Source: Thermoproteus sp.
Lineage (GTDB): Archaea > Thermoproteota > Thermoprotei > Thermoproteales > Thermoproteaceae
DNA: 16,932 nucleotides
Assembly (NCBI GenBank): GCA_049976425.1
Contig: JBMFIG010000029.1
Coordinates: 1-16,932 of the forward strand
Reading direction: 5' to 3'
Shown here in pieces: positions 4,850 to 16,932 of the stretch (position 1 is its first letter; every line of letters begins with the position of its first letter). Both the position numbers and the translations under genes were made by a program. The notes beneath the pieces are model-generated. The model worked only from the letters and a program-made list of their open reading frames with translations. It searched no databases and was not told where the DNA came from.

Positions 4850-5581
4850 ATGGAGGAGGTCGCCAAGGCTCTGGCCAACAGCAGATTCGCCGTGGCTTTC
4901 ACCGGCGCCGGCATCTCGGCCGAGTCGGGCGTGCCGACCTTCAGAGGACCGGGAGGCCTCTGGGAGAGGTACCGGCCTGAGGACCTCGCGACTCCGGAGG
5001 CCTTCTGGAGGGACCCCGTCTTAGTGTGGCGCTGGTATAGGTGGCGGCAGGAGCTTATCTACAACGCAACCCCTAACCCCGCCCACTTGGCTCTGGCCGA
5101 GCTGGAGAGCCTCGGCGTCTTGAAGGCCGTGATAACTCAGAACGTCGACGGCCTCCACAAGAGGGCCGGGTCGAGGCGCGTCGTGGAGCTCCACGGCAAT
5201 ATATGGCGGGCCAGATGTACGTCGTGCGGCCGCGAGCTCCCGATAGAGAGGCCTGTGGACGAGATACCGCCGAGGTGTCCCCACTGCGGGGGCCTGCTCA
5301 GACCTGCCGTGGTCTGGTTCGGCGAGCCGTTGCCCCGCGACGCCTGGGAGGAGGCCCTATCGCTCGCGTCCTCGGCCGACTTCATGTTGGTGGTGGGGAC
5401 GTCCGGCGTGGTGTACCCCGCGGCGTACATACCTCGGATAGCCAAGAGGAACGGCGCCGTCGTGGCGGTCGTGGATCCCGGCGAGACGGCTCTCGACGAT
5501 ATTGCCGACTTCAAGATAAGGGGGAGGGCGGCCGAGGTCTTGCCGAGGCTTGCCGTGGAGGTGAGGAGATGTCTTACGTAG
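4850..5581 (+). CDS. cobB: NAD-dependent protein deacylase, Sir2 family (class III)
   Basis: [30 protein letters not shown], two CxxC Zn pairs, [21 protein letters not shown]. Confidence 0.95.
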
Positions 5582-7058: not shown

Positions 7059-8033
7059 TCACCAGAGGGCGCTCCAGCTCTCGGCGCCTGGGTAGAGATA
7101 GGCGGTGTAGGGTCCCGACGCCGCGTCGGCCATGCCGGTCACGGTCTCCGCCGTGTCGGCGCCGTAGTCGAACGCGTGCGGGACCGAGACCAGCTTAGTG
7201 CCGTTGAGATACTGCAGGGTGTAGTAGGCCTTGTAGGCCGACGGCGAGGCGTTGGAGCCGCCGCCAGGGCCGCCGGTGACCAGCTCGGCGTCTTCGTAGA
7301 GACCGCTGGGCAGTGTGGTGTACCCCTCGACGTAGAAGGCTGCGGAGCTGACGGGCACTTTAACCACAACGCTGTCGTACTGTACCACCTTCCCGCCGTA
7401 TACGAAGTAGAAGTTTATCACTGGGTATTTCTGGGAGTTGATCGAGACCGTGACGAAGAGAGATACCTGGAGCGGGTAGGTGAAGGATATGGTCGACGGG
7501 TACTGATATGCGTAGTAGTTCTGGCCTTGGTAGGTATAGACCTTGCCGTTGCCGCTTAGACCTTTCAGCACGGATTTACTCGACGTCAAGTTCCATATGT
7601 TGTCCACTATGTTCATCTGGTTCGTCGCTGTGTTTATGACGGCTACGTCCTGCACCCACAGATAGGCGCTCTGCCCATTGGTCTTGGTGTAGTTGAGAAC
7701 CACGTTTAGCTGTATCGAGAAGCTGTGGGGGTAAAACTTGCTGTTAGACGTGAAGCTGGCCGTATAGATGGTGAAGTTCCCCATGAACTCGTTGGTGGAG
7801 TATTCGTAGGGAATTTCGGCCGAGCCCGAGTAATACGCTCCGTAGTCCGTCACGCCGACTGGGGCCTGGCTTCCGGAATACCAAGAGGGCGGCAACGTGA
7901 CCTGCATGTGTGTGGAGGGCGGCCTTACTGGAGGGAAGGCGGGAGGCGCGCTCTGCATCGACGCGACATGGACAAAGTATAGCACTATCAACGCCGTTGT
8001 TACTATTATCGTCATTGTTTCCAGTTTGTGCAT
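7059..8033 (-). CDS. Thermopsin-family acid protease (peptidase A5), secreted
   Basis: N-terminal hydrophobic signal; family motifs APVGVTDYG, SIQLNVVL, WVQDV, DNIWN, DAELVTGGPGGG, DTAET. Confidence 0.9.
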   Translation of the reverse strand: MHKLETMTIIVTTALIVLYFVHVASMQSAPPAFPPVRPPSTHMQVTLPPSWYSGSQAPVGVTDYGAYYSGSAEIPYEYSTNEFMGNFTIYTASFTSNSKFYPHSFSIQLNVVLNYTKTNGQSAYLWVQDVAVINTATNQMNIVDNIWNLTSSKSVLKGLSGNGKVYTYQGQNYYAYQYPSTISFTYPLQVSLFVTVSINSQKYPVINFYFVYGGKVVQYDSVVVKVPVSSAAFYVEGYTTLPSGLYEDAELVTGGPGGGSNASPSAYKAYYTLQYLNGTKLVSVPHAFDYGADTAETVTGMADAASGPYTAYLYPGAESWSALW

Positions 8034-11120: not shown

Positions 11121-11927
11121 TCAAACGAATTCTGCCTCGCCCAGCTCGACAAGCCCCCGTCTCTTGGCCTCGGAGAGGAGCTCCCTCACCGCCTCCTCGC
11201 CCCTCTTCCCCATATCCTTGGTGTACTCGTTGACGTACATATCCACGAAACGCGCGACGTCGTCCAGCGGAAGGCCTCTGGAGAACTTGGAGGCATATCT
11301 CAAGGCCTCCTCCCTATGCGCCTCGGCGTATTTGATGGACTCCGAGAGGAGGCCCCTCAGCTCCTCCGCGACGTCTAGGCCTAGCTCTTTCCTCACGGCG
11401 TCTACGCCGAGAGGCGTCGGCAGCCCCTTCTCGCGGAGCCACCACTCGCCTAAGTCGACCACCTTCCTCAAGCCGAGGCGCCCGTAGGTGATCTGGCCCT
11501 CGTGTATGAGGACCCCGGCGTCGACGACGCCGGCCGCCACCGCGTCGATTATCTTGTCGAAGGGGACCTCGACGGTCTTGACGTCGGGCATGGCCAGCTT
11601 GAGGAGGAGCGCCGCCGTCGTGTATCTGCCCGGCACAGCCACGAGTCTGACCTCGCCGGATCTGGGGCCCGCGACGACGACGGGCCCGTAGCCGTAGCCC
11701 ATGGACGCGCCGACCCTAAGCACGTAGTACCTGTCGGTGAAGCCCAAGGCCGCCGCGCTCAAGGCGGTGAGGTCGAGCCGCGCCCCGCCCACCGCCAGCT
11801 TGTTGAGCGTCTCTATATCGGCTAAGAACTCCCTGAAGGCGAAGCGGCTCTTGACGGCCCCAGACGCTATGCCGTAGAACATGTAGGCGTCGTCTGCGTC
11901 CGGGGAGTGGGCCAGGACGAGCTCCAT
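11121..11927 (-). CDS. mqnD: 1,4-dihydroxy-6-naphthoate synthase
   Basis: HSPDADDAYMFY, DIETLN, GASMGYGYGP, PGRYTTA, LIHEGQITY, DLGEWW, MYVN; located in the mqn cluster. Confidence 0.93.
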   Translation of the reverse strand: MELVLAHSPDADDAYMFYGIASGAVKSRFAFREFLADIETLNKLAVGGARLDLTALSAAALGFTDRYYVLRVGASMGYGYGPVVVAGPRSGEVRLVAVPGRYTTAALLLKLAMPDVKTVEVPFDKIIDAVAAGVVDAGVLIHEGQITYGRLGLRKVVDLGEWWLREKGLPTPLGVDAVRKELGLDVAEELRGLLSESIKYAEAHREEALRYASKFSRGLPLDDVARFVDMYVNEYTKDMGKRGEEAVRELLSEAKRRGLVELGEAEFV

Positions 11928-11948
11928 GGCCCCGCCGCCGCGCGTATT

Positions 11949-12671
11949 TTAAACTTGCGCGAAGCGCAGAGGAGGGAGGCCCAAGATCTCGGCCTCCCTC
12001 TTCATGGCCTCCACGACGGAGCCGTTGACGAGGTAGCGGGAGCGCTGGTAGTACTCCTCGACCAAGCTCTTGCTCACGGAGAGCCTTCTGGCCACGGACT
12101 CTATTAGGGGGCCGGGGTTCTCGTAGAAGCTGGCCACTGAGTTCTCCATCTCTGCCACCGCCTCCTCTAGGCCGGGAGCGCCCGGCCTTGCGACGAGCAC
12201 CGCGAAGACGAGGGGGGAGCCGACGCGCTCCTGCCAGAGCTCGCCTACGTCCACCACGTGGGGGACGCCTCTGTCGGCCATCCTCAACGCCTCGTCGCCG
12301 ACGACCAGCACCTCGGAGCACGAGTCGAGGGCCGTCCAGGGATCGTCGACGCCCTTGAAGGAGAGGCCCAGCAAGGCCGAGAGGGCCCTGGCGCTGACTG
12401 TGGTCTCGCCGACCGCGCAAGCCCCGCCGGAGCCGCGTCCCTTGAACAGGCGGGAGGATATTATGGGCCCCACGCTGTATATAGCCAGCCGCGGGACTAT
12501 ATGTAGGCCGTACTGCGCCGCGAGGGTTATGGGGACGAAGCCTATGTCGGCGACGCCGTCGAGCAACAGGCGGGCGGACTCCAGATTGCCGGCCTCCACA
12601 GCCTGGACCCTCGCCTTCCAGAAAAGCGGATCGCTGTGCGCGTACCTTATCCTGACTACCTTCACAGCCAT
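11949..12671 (-). CDS. mqnA: Chorismate dehydratase (MqnA/MqnD SBP-like family)
   Basis: RIRYAHSDPL, LVVGDEAL, DVGELW...PLVFA motifs; lies between mqnE and mqnD. Confidence 0.85.
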   Translation of the reverse strand: MAVKVVRIRYAHSDPLFWKARVQAVEAGNLESARLLLDGVADIGFVPITLAAQYGLHIVPRLAIYSVGPIISSRLFKGRGSGGACAVGETTVSARALSALLGLSFKGVDDPWTALDSCSEVLVVGDEALRMADRGVPHVVDVGELWQERVGSPLVFAVLVARPGAPGLEEAVAEMENSVASFYENPGPLIESVARRLSVSKSLVEEYYQRSRYLVNGSVVEAMKREAEILGLPPLRFAQV

Positions 12672-13735
12672 CGCAGAACTCTGTGGAACGTATCCCTAAT
12701 CGCAGCCCGCCTCCCGGCCTCTCTGGCTATCGCGGCGAGCTCCTCCGGCGACGCGGCCCCGCGCATGCCGGCCGATGCCAGCACCGCCTCGTTGTACATA
12801 GTGCCCACCAAGTCGTTGGCCCCAGCCTTTAAGAGAGTCGACGCCAGCCGCTTGCCCGTCGAGACCCAATAGGCGGCGACCTTCAACTTGTCCAGCAAGA
12901 TGAGCCTCGCGATGGCGACGACCTTTATATCGTATACGGCAGGCGCCGGGGCCGCGACGAGGCCCCTCCGGCCGAGCTCCGTGTTGTGGGGGGAGAACTT
13001 GACCGGTATGAACAGGAGGAGGCCGCCAGTCCTCTCCTGAAGCTCCTTGACCTTGAAGATGTGGTCCACGACGTGCTCCGGCCTCTCTATATGGCCGTAC
13101 AACATAGTGGCGTTGCTGGGTATGCCGAGCTTGTGGGCCAGCTCCGCTATGTTCAGCCAAGTCCCGCCGTCGAGCTTGTGGGGCGACACGACGCGCCTGA
13201 CCTCCTCGGCGAAGATCTCGGCGCCTCCTCCGGATATGGCGTCCAGCCCCGCCTCCTTGAACCTCTCGAGGACCTCGCGCCACGACATGCGCCACAGACG
13301 CGAGTAGTAGTCGACCTCGGCCATCGTGGGGCCCTTTATCGCCACGCCGGGCGCCGCCCTCTTGACGGCCCTGAAAAGCTCCTCGAAGTACTCCACGGAC
13401 AGCTCCGGGTTGAAGCCGCCGTTTACGTGGAGCTCAGTCACGCCGAGGGACGAGGAGGCCTCGGCGACGGCCTTCGCCACGTCCTCAGGGGCGCGGGTAT
13501 AGGCCTCTGGATGCTTCGGGGGCCTATAGAAGGCACATATGGGGCATCTCGCCACGCAGACGTTGCTGTAGTTGATCACTATATTGTTTACGAACGTCAC
13601 CGAGTCGCCCCACAATCTGAGCGTCAGCTCCTCGGCGGCTTTGGCGAGGGCCATGAAGTCCTCGTCGAAGAGCTTCACGGCCTCGCCGGCCGACAAGCCC
13701 GACAGCGCGGCCTCGGCTATCTCGCGGGGGGTCAC
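12662..13735 (-). CDS. mqnE: Aminodeoxyfutalosine synthase (CofH/MqnE-type radical SAM)
   Basis: NYSNVCVARCPICAF, ELHVNGG, GGGAEIF, NATMLYGHIE, FIP..F.P.NT and K.AAYW are MqnE-type features. Confidence 0.85.
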   Translation of the reverse strand: MTPREIAEAALSGLSAGEAVKLFDEDFMALAKAAEELTLRLWGDSVTFVNNIVINYSNVCVARCPICAFYRPPKHPEAYTRAPEDVAKAVAEASSSLGVTELHVNGGFNPELSVEYFEELFRAVKRAAPGVAIKGPTMAEVDYYSRLWRMSWREVLERFKEAGLDAISGGGAEIFAEEVRRVVSPHKLDGGTWLNIAELAHKLGIPSNATMLYGHIERPEHVVDHIFKVKELQERTGGLLLFIPVKFSPHNTELGRRGLVAAPAPAVYDIKVVAIARLILLDKLKVAAYWVSTGKRLASTLLKAGANDLVGTMYNEAVLASAGMRGAASPEELAAIAREAGRRAAIRDTFHRVLRWL

Positions 13736-13776
13736 GGAGGAGGAAACGGATTTTTGTATTAAACGTTCTCCCAGCC

Positions 13777-14811
13777 GTGAGGCTGGAGGACGTGAAGGAG
13801 TTGCTCTCCAGAGATCTGTGGGAGCTGGGGATGGAGGCCTGGAAGATAAGGAGCGGCCTCTACGGGAGGAGGGCCACGTACATATCCAGCATGGTGTTGA
13901 ACTACACCAACGTGTGCGTGGTGGAGTGCGAGTTCTGCCCGTTCTGGAGGAGGCGGGGGGATAAAGACGCCTACGCGCTGTCGGTGGACGAGGCCGTCGG
14001 GAGGGTGCTCGCCGTCGACGCGAAGTACGGGCTGAGGCAGGTGTTGGTGCAAGGCGGCATAAACCCCGAGATAGGGATAGAGTACTTCGAGGATCTGTTC
14101 AGGAGGATAAAGGCCAAGGCGCCTCACATAGCCGTGCACGCGCTGTCGCCGCTGGAGGTGGACTACCTATCCAGGAGGGAGAGGATGTCGTGGCGCGAGG
14201 TCCTGGAGAGGCTCAAGGAGGCCGGCATGGACTCCATGCCCGGCGGAGGCGGCGAGATCCTCGTGGACAGGGTCAGGAAGGAGATATCGCCAAAGAAGAT
14301 AAGCGCCGAGGTCTGGCTGAGGATAATGGAGGAGGCCCACAAGCTCGGCATACCCACGTCGGCCACCATGATGTACGGCCACGTGGAGGGGCCCGAGGAC
14401 TGGGCCGAGCATATATGGAAGATAGCCGAGTTGCAGGAGAGGACCAAGGGCTTCCTGGCCTTCATAGCGTGGAACTACGAGCCGGGCGGCAACAAGCTCG
14501 GCGAGAGGGTGAGGCACCCGAGGACGTCGGCCACTCTGTTGAGGATGGTGGCCGTTGCGAGGATGGCGTTTATGGGAGACGCCTTCATACCCCACATACA
14601 GTCGTCCTGGCTCACCAACGGGCCCGAGACGGCGGAGCTCGCCATGTACTTCGGCGCCGACGACTTCGGCGGAACTCTATACGAGGAGAAGGTGTTGGAG
14701 GAGCAGAGGCGGAGCTCCCCCATAGCGACTAGGAAAGACGTGGAGGAGCTGATAAGGAGGGCCGGGTTCCAGCCCGTGGAGAGGGACAACTGGTATAGGC
14801 CAGCGGCCTAG
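13777..14811 (+). CDS. mqnC: Cyclic dehypoxanthinyl futalosine synthase (radical SAM)
   Basis: NYTNVCVVECEFCPF, VQGG..P, HALSPLE, SATMMYGH, FIAW, HIQSSWLT.G and ADDFGGTLYEE.V are MqnC-type features. Confidence 0.88.
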   Translation: MRLEDVKELLSRDLWELGMEAWKIRSGLYGRRATYISSMVLNYTNVCVVECEFCPFWRRRGDKDAYALSVDEAVGRVLAVDAKYGLRQVLVQGGINPEIGIEYFEDLFRRIKAKAPHIAVHALSPLEVDYLSRRERMSWREVLERLKEAGMDSMPGGGGEILVDRVRKEISPKKISAEVWLRIMEEAHKLGIPTSATMMYGHVEGPEDWAEHIWKIAELQERTKGFLAFIAWNYEPGGNKLGERVRHPRTSATLLRMVAVARMAFMGDAFIPHIQSSWLTNGPETAELAMYFGADDFGGTLYEEKVLEEQRRSSPIATRKDVEELIRRAGFQPVERDNWYRPAA

Positions 14812-16073: not shown

Positions 16074-16586
16074 TAGCTACGTTCAGTAAGCATCGCGCCT
16101 TCATCCATGTGGCCGAGGCGGCGCCTCGGCCGAATCATCTTCATGTTCCCCCGATGTCCCCTCCTGGGGCTAGCCCGGGCGGGGGCGCGGGGGAGAAAAC
16201 CCCACGCCGCCGTACGCGCGCGGAGTCCGGGGTGGTCCCGCCCCCGAGGGCGGCCTGCGGCCGCTCTCGAAACCGGTTGATCCTGCCGGACCTGACCGCT
16301 ATCGGGGTGGGGCTAAGCCATGCGAGTCGCGCGCCCGGGGCGCCGGGCGCGGCGCACGGCTCAGTAACACGTGCCCAACCTACCCTCGGGAGGGGGACAA
16401 CCCCGGGAAACTGGGGCTGATCCCCCATAGGGGAAGGGCGCTGGAAGGCCCCTTCCCCCAAAGGGATCTCGGGCGATCTCCCGGGATCCGCCCGAGGATG
16501 GGGGCACGGCCCATCAGGTTGTTGGCGGGGTAACGGCCCGCCAAGCCGAAGACGGGTAGGGGCGGTGAGAGCCGTGAGCCCCGAGA

Positions 16587-16620
<34 letters not shown>

Positions 16621-16645
16621 TGCAGCAGGCGCGAATACTCCGCAA

Positions 16646-16932
16646 ATGGGGGACGGCCGGCTCGCCATGGGCTACGTATTCGACCTCAGCCCCGTGGTTT
16701 ACTCCAAATTCGACCGTAGACGGGGCATAAAGATACCGGAAAAACCGTCAGAGAGTCTAGCCGAGGAGGTCGCCGTACACCTAGGCGACGGCTACCTCTT
16801 CTACGACGCCGAAGACCACAGCTACAGATACGGCATCGGCCTAAACCCAAAAACCGAGGCGGACTACGCCGAAGCGGTAGCTGACTTGCTCGGAGAAGTG
16901 TATGGCTACAGACCGCCGGTAAGAAACGCGAG
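16646..16932 (+). mobile_element. Archaeal rRNA intron at 16S position 374 (E. coli numbering), partial
   Basis: After ...TACTCCGCAA the expected TGCG...GCGACGGGG continuation is replaced by unrelated protein-coding sequence. Position 374 is a known intron locus in Thermoproteales. Boundary accurate to about 1 nt. Confidence 0.9.
16667..16932 (+). CDS. Intron-encoded LAGLIDADG homing endonuclease, 3'-truncated by the window end
   Basis: Manual translation [88 protein letters not shown]...; [12 protein letters not shown] is the LAGLIDADG helix. An alternative in-frame ATG lies at 16646. Confidence 0.88.

Follow-up and report, generated by a model that had tools for sequence, protein, structure and literature searches.

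A 16S rRNA gene interrupted at locus 374 in a Thermoproteus-like archaeon: the 5' part of an intron predicted to encode a two-domain LAGLIDADG homing endonuclease, most likely horizontally acquired

Exon 1, the insertion site and the intron family

The window, by which we mean the whole 16,932-nucleotide (nt) stretch of DNA analysed here, is the complete contig C29 of a Thermoproteus-like genome (96 contigs, 99.4% complete), and at its end a 16S ribosomal RNA (rRNA) gene is broken off at Escherichia coli position 374 by what we read as the 5' part of a mobile intron. Exon 1, the part of the gene 5' of locus 374, occupies 16270..16645 on the forward strand; the Rfam model SSU_rRNA_archaea (RF01959; cmscan) matches from 16273, which is model position 4 (270.7 bits), and the start at ~16270 is extrapolated from that position. 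The alignment is clean through CUCCGCA(A) and collapses past ~16645. Up to 16645 the window matches the intronless 16S gene of a genome of the same genus (G007) without a difference over 373 positions, and beyond it the two are unrelated, G007 reading TGCGGGCAACCGCG and the window ATGGGGGACGGCCGGC. Both comparisons end at 16645, which upholds the loss of 16S colinearity after CCGCAA reported in the preliminary description; the boundary follows CUCCGCAA at 16645/16646 and is a junction shared by eight complete intron copies elsewhere. The exon 2 sequence typical of the window's genus is UGCGGGCAACCGCGACGGGGCCACC. Locus 374, rightly named as a known intron site, appears in Table 1 of a catalogue of introns in archaeal 16S genes (Jay & Inskeep 2015, PMC4496867) that recognises 13 sites; its hosts there are Pyrobaculum and Caldivirga, and its introns comprise 10 short hairpin ones and 5 that code for endonucleases.

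The intron part lies at 16646..16932 on the forward strand and comprises the 5' 287 nt (~40%) of an archaeal 16S rRNA intron, ended by the contig end. In relatives the block just beyond 16932 is the most conserved of the family, but G023 and G010 have no exact run of >=17 nt in common, so that this conservation does not account for the contig end. A 660-nt stretch of exon plus intron was searched in 41 related genomes. The exon is matched in 35 of them, and besides the window's own genome (G000) the match runs through the intron part in three only, G023 (91%), G010 (84%) and G016 (83%), all of a sister, Pyrobaculum-like genus (g3; the window's genus is g1). Insertions of 718, 713 and 713 nt, respectively, occupy the identical site in these three genomes, the 16S sequence resuming at TGCGGG, and Rfam finds full-length 16S genes of ~2,155 nt in G010 and G016. 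More complete copies at the same site come from G118 (also L022) and from four metagenome contigs, which makes eight overall; of the candidate stretches from pattern surveys, 1 of 120 was confirmed in genomes and 4 of 142 in metagenomes. Nucleotide identity to the window's 287 nt is 89.2% for the copy in G023; for those in G010 and G016 it is 75.9%, measured over 195 nt. Given the 90% identity of its encoded fragment to a Pyrobaculum protein (P0004, see below) and the catalogue of locus-374 introns, the element is, as judged by sequence, a member of a described family of ~713 nt first seen in Pyrobaculum. The first example at this locus, from P. aerophilum, is attributed to Burggraf et al. (1993) and is said to be 713 nt long.

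Several copies depart from this pattern. In two metagenome contigs (L030:77-1868 and L031:122-1868) the insertion at the same 16S site measures 1792 and 1747 nt, not ~713; the 5' splice strand is separated from the endonuclease open reading frame (ORF; L030:1189-1842) by ~1.1 kb of extra sequence (GC content 0.57). This extra sequence is 86% identical between the two copies, resembles neither the endonuclease family (tblastn, E>0.3) nor the window's genome or any other locus, and could be cargo or a nested element. G018 (L013:1876-1990) carries an ORF-less mini-intron of 115 nt at locus 374, with termini AUGGGGGG...CCCCCCAGCGGAA, which is probably a deletion derivative of a coding intron. The 718-nt copy of G023 (L003:1876-2658) has lost the usual stop codon, and its ORF continues beyond the 3' splice site through the first 65 nt of exon 2 (260 codons against the usual 226); further downstream the same 16S gene has a second intron (L003:2898-3662) with another LAGLIDADG_3 ORF (E 4.9e-10).

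The splice motif and its proposed processing

The predicted splice motif is of the bulge-helix-bulge (BHB) kind, and the window contains its complete 5' strand. CCGC at 16640..16643 (forward strand) would be the exon strand of the central helix of 4 base pairs (bp) and pairs with GCGG in 8/8 complete copies. The 3-nt bulge AAA that follows (16644..16646, forward strand) would hold the 5' splice site; it reads AAA in all eight copies and is unpaired in the folds of two relatives. The 5' strand of the intron-intron outer helices, UGGGGGA-C-GGCCGGC at 16647..16661 (forward strand), consists of UGGGGGA (16647-16653), C (16654) and GGCCGGC (16655-16661) and pairs in relatives with GCCGGCC-UCCCCCA at the intron 3' end. 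The whole of this strand is identical to that of relatives that fold as the splice motif, its 3' partner lying past the contig end. By alignment the 5' cut falls at 16645|16646, a position ambiguous by up to 2 nt because the A's are repeated, so that cuts at 16643, 16644 or 16645 give the same spliced product.

All eight complete copies share the intron 3' end ...(GCCGGCC)UCCCCCA-GCGG-AA|UGCGGG, with 4/4 bp between CCGC and GCGG, the AAA bulge, and an AA tail followed by the exon U. Six copies have UGGGGGA:UCCCCCA as their outer helix, with a G.U pair in one of them, and L030 and L031 have UAGGGCUGGUGGG:CCCGCCAGCCCUA, which represents compensatory changes; the outer helix of the 115-nt intron of G018, UGGGGGG:CCCCCCA, is compensatory as well. 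Three features had been predicted for the missing 3' end, namely pairing with UGGGGG, a GCGG opposite the exon CCGC, and a 2-nt bulge ahead of a resuming UGCG, and the eight complete relatives and the G018 mini-intron have all three. Unconstrained minimum free energy and centroid folds of two complete introns with their flanks pair the termini in this arrangement, the central helix being followed by two unpaired bases and then by the native GCGG-GCAA-CCGC hairpin. In these folds the 5' site is a canonical 3-nt bulge.

We propose that in the pre-rRNA the exon CCGC would pair with the GCGG near the intron 3' end and the intron UGGGGGA/GGCCGGC with GCCGGCC/UCCCCCA. With these pairings, the AAA bulge would contain the 5' splice site, and the 3' site would fall in the unpaired AA(U) ahead of exon 2 (UGCGGG...). 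Both sites would be cut by the tRNA-splicing endonuclease of the host, and RtcB would ligate the exons and circularise the intron. Cutting and circularisation of archaeal introns by the splicing endonuclease and RtcB are described as established (PMC3326292). Both enzymes are encoded in the window's genome, RtcB at 592 bits and EndA through its catalytic domain at 92.2 bits, and we infer that host enzymes would splice this intron. The RNA runs examined have zero depth on 16669-16932.

The predicted intron-encoded endonuclease

No stop interrupts the frame that opens at 16646 (0 as far as 16930), while the two alternative frames contain 6 and 2, and ATG codons stand at 16646-16648 and 16667-16669, just as the preliminary description gave an open frame with these two possible starts. 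It includes a 12-residue motif at 16757-16792 and a 17-residue segment at 16856-16906. On the evidence of the family profile, P0004 and the ratio of non-synonymous to synonymous substitution rates (dN/dS), 16667..16930 (forward strand) is assigned as the predicted N-terminal domain of an intron-encoded LAGLIDADG homing endonuclease, of which it holds the first 88 codons (95 from the ATG at 16646) and is open at the 3' end. The fragment matches the profile of the intron-ORF family at E 6e-47 and P0004 at 90% amino acid (aa) identity over 88/88 residues (E 1.8e-47), a relationship that at the level of sequence is beyond chance. The window differs from the G023 copy by 20 synonymous and 9 non-synonymous changes, and the resulting dN/dS of 0.10 argues that the frame has been maintained by purifying selection. 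Residues L31-G42 except 35 and 37 are invariant in 10/10 family sequences, and all the family-invariant residues are kept in the window.

The endonuclease was said to be absent from the ORF track, and the frame is indeed listed only as a 3'-open ORF when open-ended ORFs are allowed, which is the likely reason for its omission. Gene callers tend to extend the intron ORF upstream into exon 1, for which the window offers an in-frame GTG at 16565 (16565-16645); the public proteins P0001 and P0002 begin with translated rRNA (MRAASPEIGTETRAEALRG...), an annotation artefact. Whichever of three starts is chosen, the protein collection has no exact copy of the window ORF. The search for longer proteins returned 4 among 141 candidates, the best at 90% identity, and the search for near matches 1 among 29, an irrelevant one at 70% identity over 36% of the query.

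The class of the enzyme is indicated by its full-length relatives. Pfam LAGLIDADG_3 (PF14528) matches residues 138-215 of full-length relatives only, at E 7e-13 and 2.7e-11 and above cut-off, and their N-terminal domain is missed by Pfam too; the 108-aa N-half likewise gave nothing relevant in Pfam or NCBIfam. Searched against the sequences of the PDB, the full protein has 0 hits, and the family profile hits only PI-PfuI, at E 0.006 and on the C-domain. The N-domain profile matches 191 library proteins at E<=0.001. Ten of the 150 listed matches were scanned in Pfam, and eight of these ten have LAGLIDADG_3 at E<=0.01 (four above cut-off), always C-terminal to the matched stretch; the other two have one sub-threshold Hom_end and nothing, respectively. 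Among the ten, P0042 alone shows a sub-threshold LAGLIDADG_2 on the matched stretch itself. In the ESM Atlas the N-part lies near LAGLIDADG_3-bearing clusters (score 0.94), which serves as a lead only.

A structural model was computed with AlphaFold2 from an alignment of 10 family sequences with the G016 protein first, to which the window's 88 residues are 69% identical. The model of this full-length relative (predicted local distance difference test, pLDDT, 94.1; predicted template modelling score, pTM, 0.90) has two alpha-beta-beta-alpha-beta-beta-alpha units. Foldseek finds 102 PDB matches at E<=0.001, the top ones all LAGLIDADG enzymes, led by VMA intein endonucleases, I-SceI, I-DmoI, I-AniI, PI-PfuI and I-Tsp061I; with VIA-align the TliVMA intein endonuclease reaches Z 20.7, and the alignments span model residues ~24-219, that is both domains. 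In the model the window's residues cover helix 29-41, the two strands 42-47 and 52-58, helix 65-79 and the first part of the strand after it, and the beta-rich segment followed by a helix that had been read from the sequence is recovered in these two strands and helix 65-79. Motif 1 (12 residues, 16757..16792, forward strand; Asp codon 16787-16789) is assigned by its invariance in the family and its position in the model, where it forms the C-terminal end of helix 29-41 with an invariant GDG directly before strand 42-47. Its Asp is presumed to be a metal-binding catalytic residue, a role that we assume by analogy with I-DmoI. The second motif, ..GL.DTEGS, includes the near-invariant E142 of full-length relatives, an alignment column whose sole gap is the truncated row of the window, and its position is past the contig end.

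On the Pfam match of the C-domain and the modelled structure of both domains, the family is a two-domain LAGLIDADG enzyme, and the window's part would be the first domain including the motif-1 Asp. The LAGLIDADG class put forward in the preliminary description stands on these grounds; a profile match for the window's own fragment, also expected there, was not obtained. The catalogue scores all 5 coding introns at locus 374 as single-motif (PMC4496867). By the modelled structure this needs a small correction, the locus-374 enzymes being two-domain, two-motif LAGLIDADG monomers and not single-motif ones. We propose that the intron encodes a monomeric two-domain homing endonuclease of ~220 aa, of which the window holds the N-terminal domain only, and that the enzyme would cut the intronless 16S allele (...CTCCGCAA|TGCGGGCAAC...), leading to the copying of the intron into the cut allele. 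The only other LAGLIDADG_3 match in the genome (G000:C13:13896-14174, 81.7 bits) lies inside an open frame of 1278 aa; it is not the window's gene, and the large protein probably carries an intein endonuclease.

Origin, rival explanations and relation to known systems

The host is placed as Thermoproteus-like by its thermopsin, whose matches at >=90% identity carry the source name Thermoproteus sp. The endonuclease family is present in 5 of the 120 genomes of the class, G000 and 4 of the 18 of g3, and in 0 of 8 other g1 genomes; seven of these eight are intronless at the site, and the eighth matched over 68 nt only. Two housekeeping proteins encoded in the window share 97-99% identity with their G007 counterparts and 67-71% with those of G023, G010 and G016. 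For the endonuclease fragment the identities are 90% to the copy in G023 and 67-69% to the remaining g3 copies, and a tree of 88 columns joins the window with G023 (support 80/91), indicating that the similarity of the intron does not follow the host tree. GC content at third codon positions (GC3) is 0.68 in the window's copy, 0.59 in that of G023, 0.43 in the other copies and 0.79-0.89 in the host genes, and the changes between the window and G023 number 23 AT>GC and 6 GC>AT, consistent with a copy shifted towards its GC-rich host. Since the nearest relatives are in another genus and the congeners lack the intron, horizontal acquisition is the most likely origin. This agrees with the catalogue, in which 16S introns group by geography and not by genus and frequent horizontal transmission is held to be needed (PMC4496867). 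The loci catalogued there for Thermoproteus are 548, 722, 1093, 1205, 1213 and 1391, not 374, and the literature searched gave no later report of Thermoproteus at locus 374, though the supplementary lists of PMC4496867 could hold one; PMC3189178 yielded nothing on a locus-374 intron.

No public run has more than 26% of the sampled words of this variant. Runs X10, X21 and X22 have no depth on 16669-16932, and X19 has only a diverged intron-bearing contig (record 12). X10 shows an empty g1-type site, with a loose end at 16645 that continues TGCGGGCAACCGCGACGGGGCCACC. The empty site in X10 and the diverged intron-bearing form in X19 indicate that both alleles exist in hot springs, and neither tests the window's contig. 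We lean, by a little, to a recent cross-genus homing event, in which an intron of the Pyrobaculum lineage would have entered the locus 374 of a Thermoproteus-like 16S gene, G007 (the closest sequenced relative of the host) and the X10 population would keep the empty site and the invading copy would already be drifting to the GC content of its host. If true, this would widen the known host range of locus 374 and provide an intron-plus/intron-minus pair for studies of homing at high temperature.

Taken together, we read 16646-16932 as the 5' part of a BHB intron at locus 374 in the single 16S gene of a Thermoproteus-like archaeon, encoding a two-domain LAGLIDADG endonuclease and most likely horizontally acquired, with a probability of about 80%. 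A number of results weigh against it. As to the enzyme, the 88-95 codons of the window match 0 Pfam families (E<=10 and E<=1) and nothing relevant in NCBIfam, the profiles of the N-half and the C-half are not significantly similar to each other (hhalign, E 0.15, probability 0.4%), and in the PDB the N-domain profile reaches no LAGLIDADG enzyme, its single hit being an unrelated chain at E 0.44; because these sequence searches failed for the N-domain, the domain assignment of the window's part depends on the model of a relative that is 69% identical. As to splicing, an exon-exon outer helix of the strict BHB is not evident, the 3' site lying between the central helix and the native hairpin; the 3' splice context is relaxed in the folds by comparison with a strict BHB. 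The clade of the window and G023 has modest support (80/91 on 88 columns). The assembly lacks exon 2, the 23S gene and the remaining ~60% of the intron on its 3' side, and in it the full 16S loci of five relatives matched only C29 and unrelated flanks (blastn); an RF01959 profile search of the genome gave 0 matches and is uninformative, since it missed the window's own 373-nt 16S piece too. The variant is found in no public run or protein record, so the junction is without independent corroboration. Finally, the sub-lineage of the window's copy may be decaying, since its nearest complete copy, that of G023, no longer ends at the usual stop but reads 65 nt into exon 2.

The contrast between the relatives of the intron and those of its host would reflect transfer between genera or, less likely, an assembly chimera, in which exon 1 of an intronless organism was joined to the intron of a co-occurring Pyrobaculum-like population via the conserved exon sequence before the site. 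The rRNA regions of metagenome bins are prone to chimeric joins, and such a join would fit the intronless state of 7/8 same-genus genomes (including G007 with its 373/373 identical exon 1), the confinement of the nearest intron relatives to the other genus, a contig that ends 287 nt into the intron with the rest of the rRNA operon unassembled, the intronless g1-type junction in the hot-spring run X10, and the lack of this variant from public runs and protein records. However, g1-type and g3-type exons share only 38 nt directly before the junction and the window has g1-specific bases from 39 nt upstream (bases that separate it from the Pyrobaculum type stand, e.g., at 16575, 16588 and 16607), so that a false join would require a k-mer of <=38. 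A graph branch would be expected to leave a contig break at the junction, where there is none, and no known Pyrobaculum-like copy is closer than 89% in nucleotide sequence. GC3 and the substitution bias lean to a GC-rich host as well, though some Pyrobaculum-like genomes are also GC-rich. We consider a chimera improbable. Less probable by far is that there is no intron at all and that the 16S sequence is a pseudogene or ends in a rearrangement breakpoint beside an unrelated gene: the 16S sequence does not resume in the window and the assembly has no other 16S piece, yet the break coincides to the nucleotide with a catalogued intron site, the sequence from the first base onward is homologous to complete introns with both exons at 8 other loci, and a genome that is 99.4% complete has no second 16S gene.

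The alternative that deserves more weight than either, without being favoured, accepts the intron as real and takes it for a decaying passenger, still spliced and no longer mobile, its endonuclease truncated, frameshifted or dead past the contig end. The life cycle of homing endonucleases predicts degeneration after fixation, and the 10 short hairpin introns catalogued at locus 374 outnumber the 5 coding ones (PMC4496867); the G023 copy, with an intron 5 nt longer, a lost stop and read-through into exon 2, and the ORF-less 115-nt derivative in G018 at the same site would fit such a course. In the window itself, by contrast, the 88 codons present are intact with a dN/dS of 0.10, the family-invariant residues including the motif-1 Asp are all kept, and if the acquisition was recent the gene was recently functional. 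We therefore regard a defunct endonuclease as possible, and retain the intron with a two-domain endonuclease, horizontally acquired, as our preferred reading.

The value of the finding is mainly practical. Such an intron breaks 16S assembly and binning, has left the 16S gene incomplete in the window's genome and can defeat primers spanning position 374; primer Kb366F is catalogued as interrupted at this locus (PMC4496867), in accord with the disruption of 16S amplicons that had been foreseen. Because the intron interrupts the primer region, a Thermoproteus-like lineage could be missed or mis-called in amplicon surveys. The reading would also add one host genus to a known mobile element and a further case of intron similarity departing from host phylogeny, in line with the horizontal spread proposed in the catalogue (PMC4496867). 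The amidohydrolase gene of the window immediately precedes the 16S gene. Other products encoded in the window are a Sir2 protein (4850-5581), a thermopsin (7059-8033) and, at 11121-14811, those of a futalosine-type menaquinone biosynthesis cluster with two radical-SAM/CofH_C and two VitK2_biosynth proteins.

Among known systems, the locus-374 introns of Pyrobaculum and Caldivirga are the closest to the window, sharing its site, its protein family and, as far as the window runs, its termini and splice geometry; the complete Pyrobaculum-like copies are 713-718 nt long and 76-89% identical in nucleotide sequence to the window's part. The window differs from the catalogued introns in its Thermoproteus-like host and in holding only the first 287 nt, and the single motif of the catalogue differs from the two domains modelled here. 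The closest full-length protein is P0004 (NCBI 'rRNA intron-encoded homing endonuclease [Pyrobaculum ferrireducens]'), which carries LAGLIDADG_3 and is 253 aa long with a tail of translated exon sequence; the window's copy is ended at 88 codons and differs from it at 9 of 88 residues. In fold, the family model resembles I-Tsp061I (PDB 2dch), a monomeric two-domain LAGLIDADG protein (Z 17.0, 171 residues aligned, root-mean-square deviation (rmsd) 2.9), and I-DmoI (PDB 1b24 and others; Z 16.3-16.7, with Z 16.3, 159 aligned and rmsd 2.4 for 1b24). Like the family described here, both are encoded by introns of hyperthermophilic Crenarchaeota. Their introns and target sites are other ones, their sequence identity with the family is 15-18%, the family has no sequence-level hit to them in the PDB, and ~25 extra N-terminal residues of the family fall outside the alignments. 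Introns at different loci are described as too diverged to compare, with <20% identity (PMC4496867). The likeness to I-PogI, encoded by the Pog.S1213 intron of Pyrobaculum oguniense, is one of description only, its locus being 1213 and not 374; it is a 16S intron-encoded endonuclease from the same host family for which homing has been shown experimentally (Nakayama 2003, as cited in PMC4496867).

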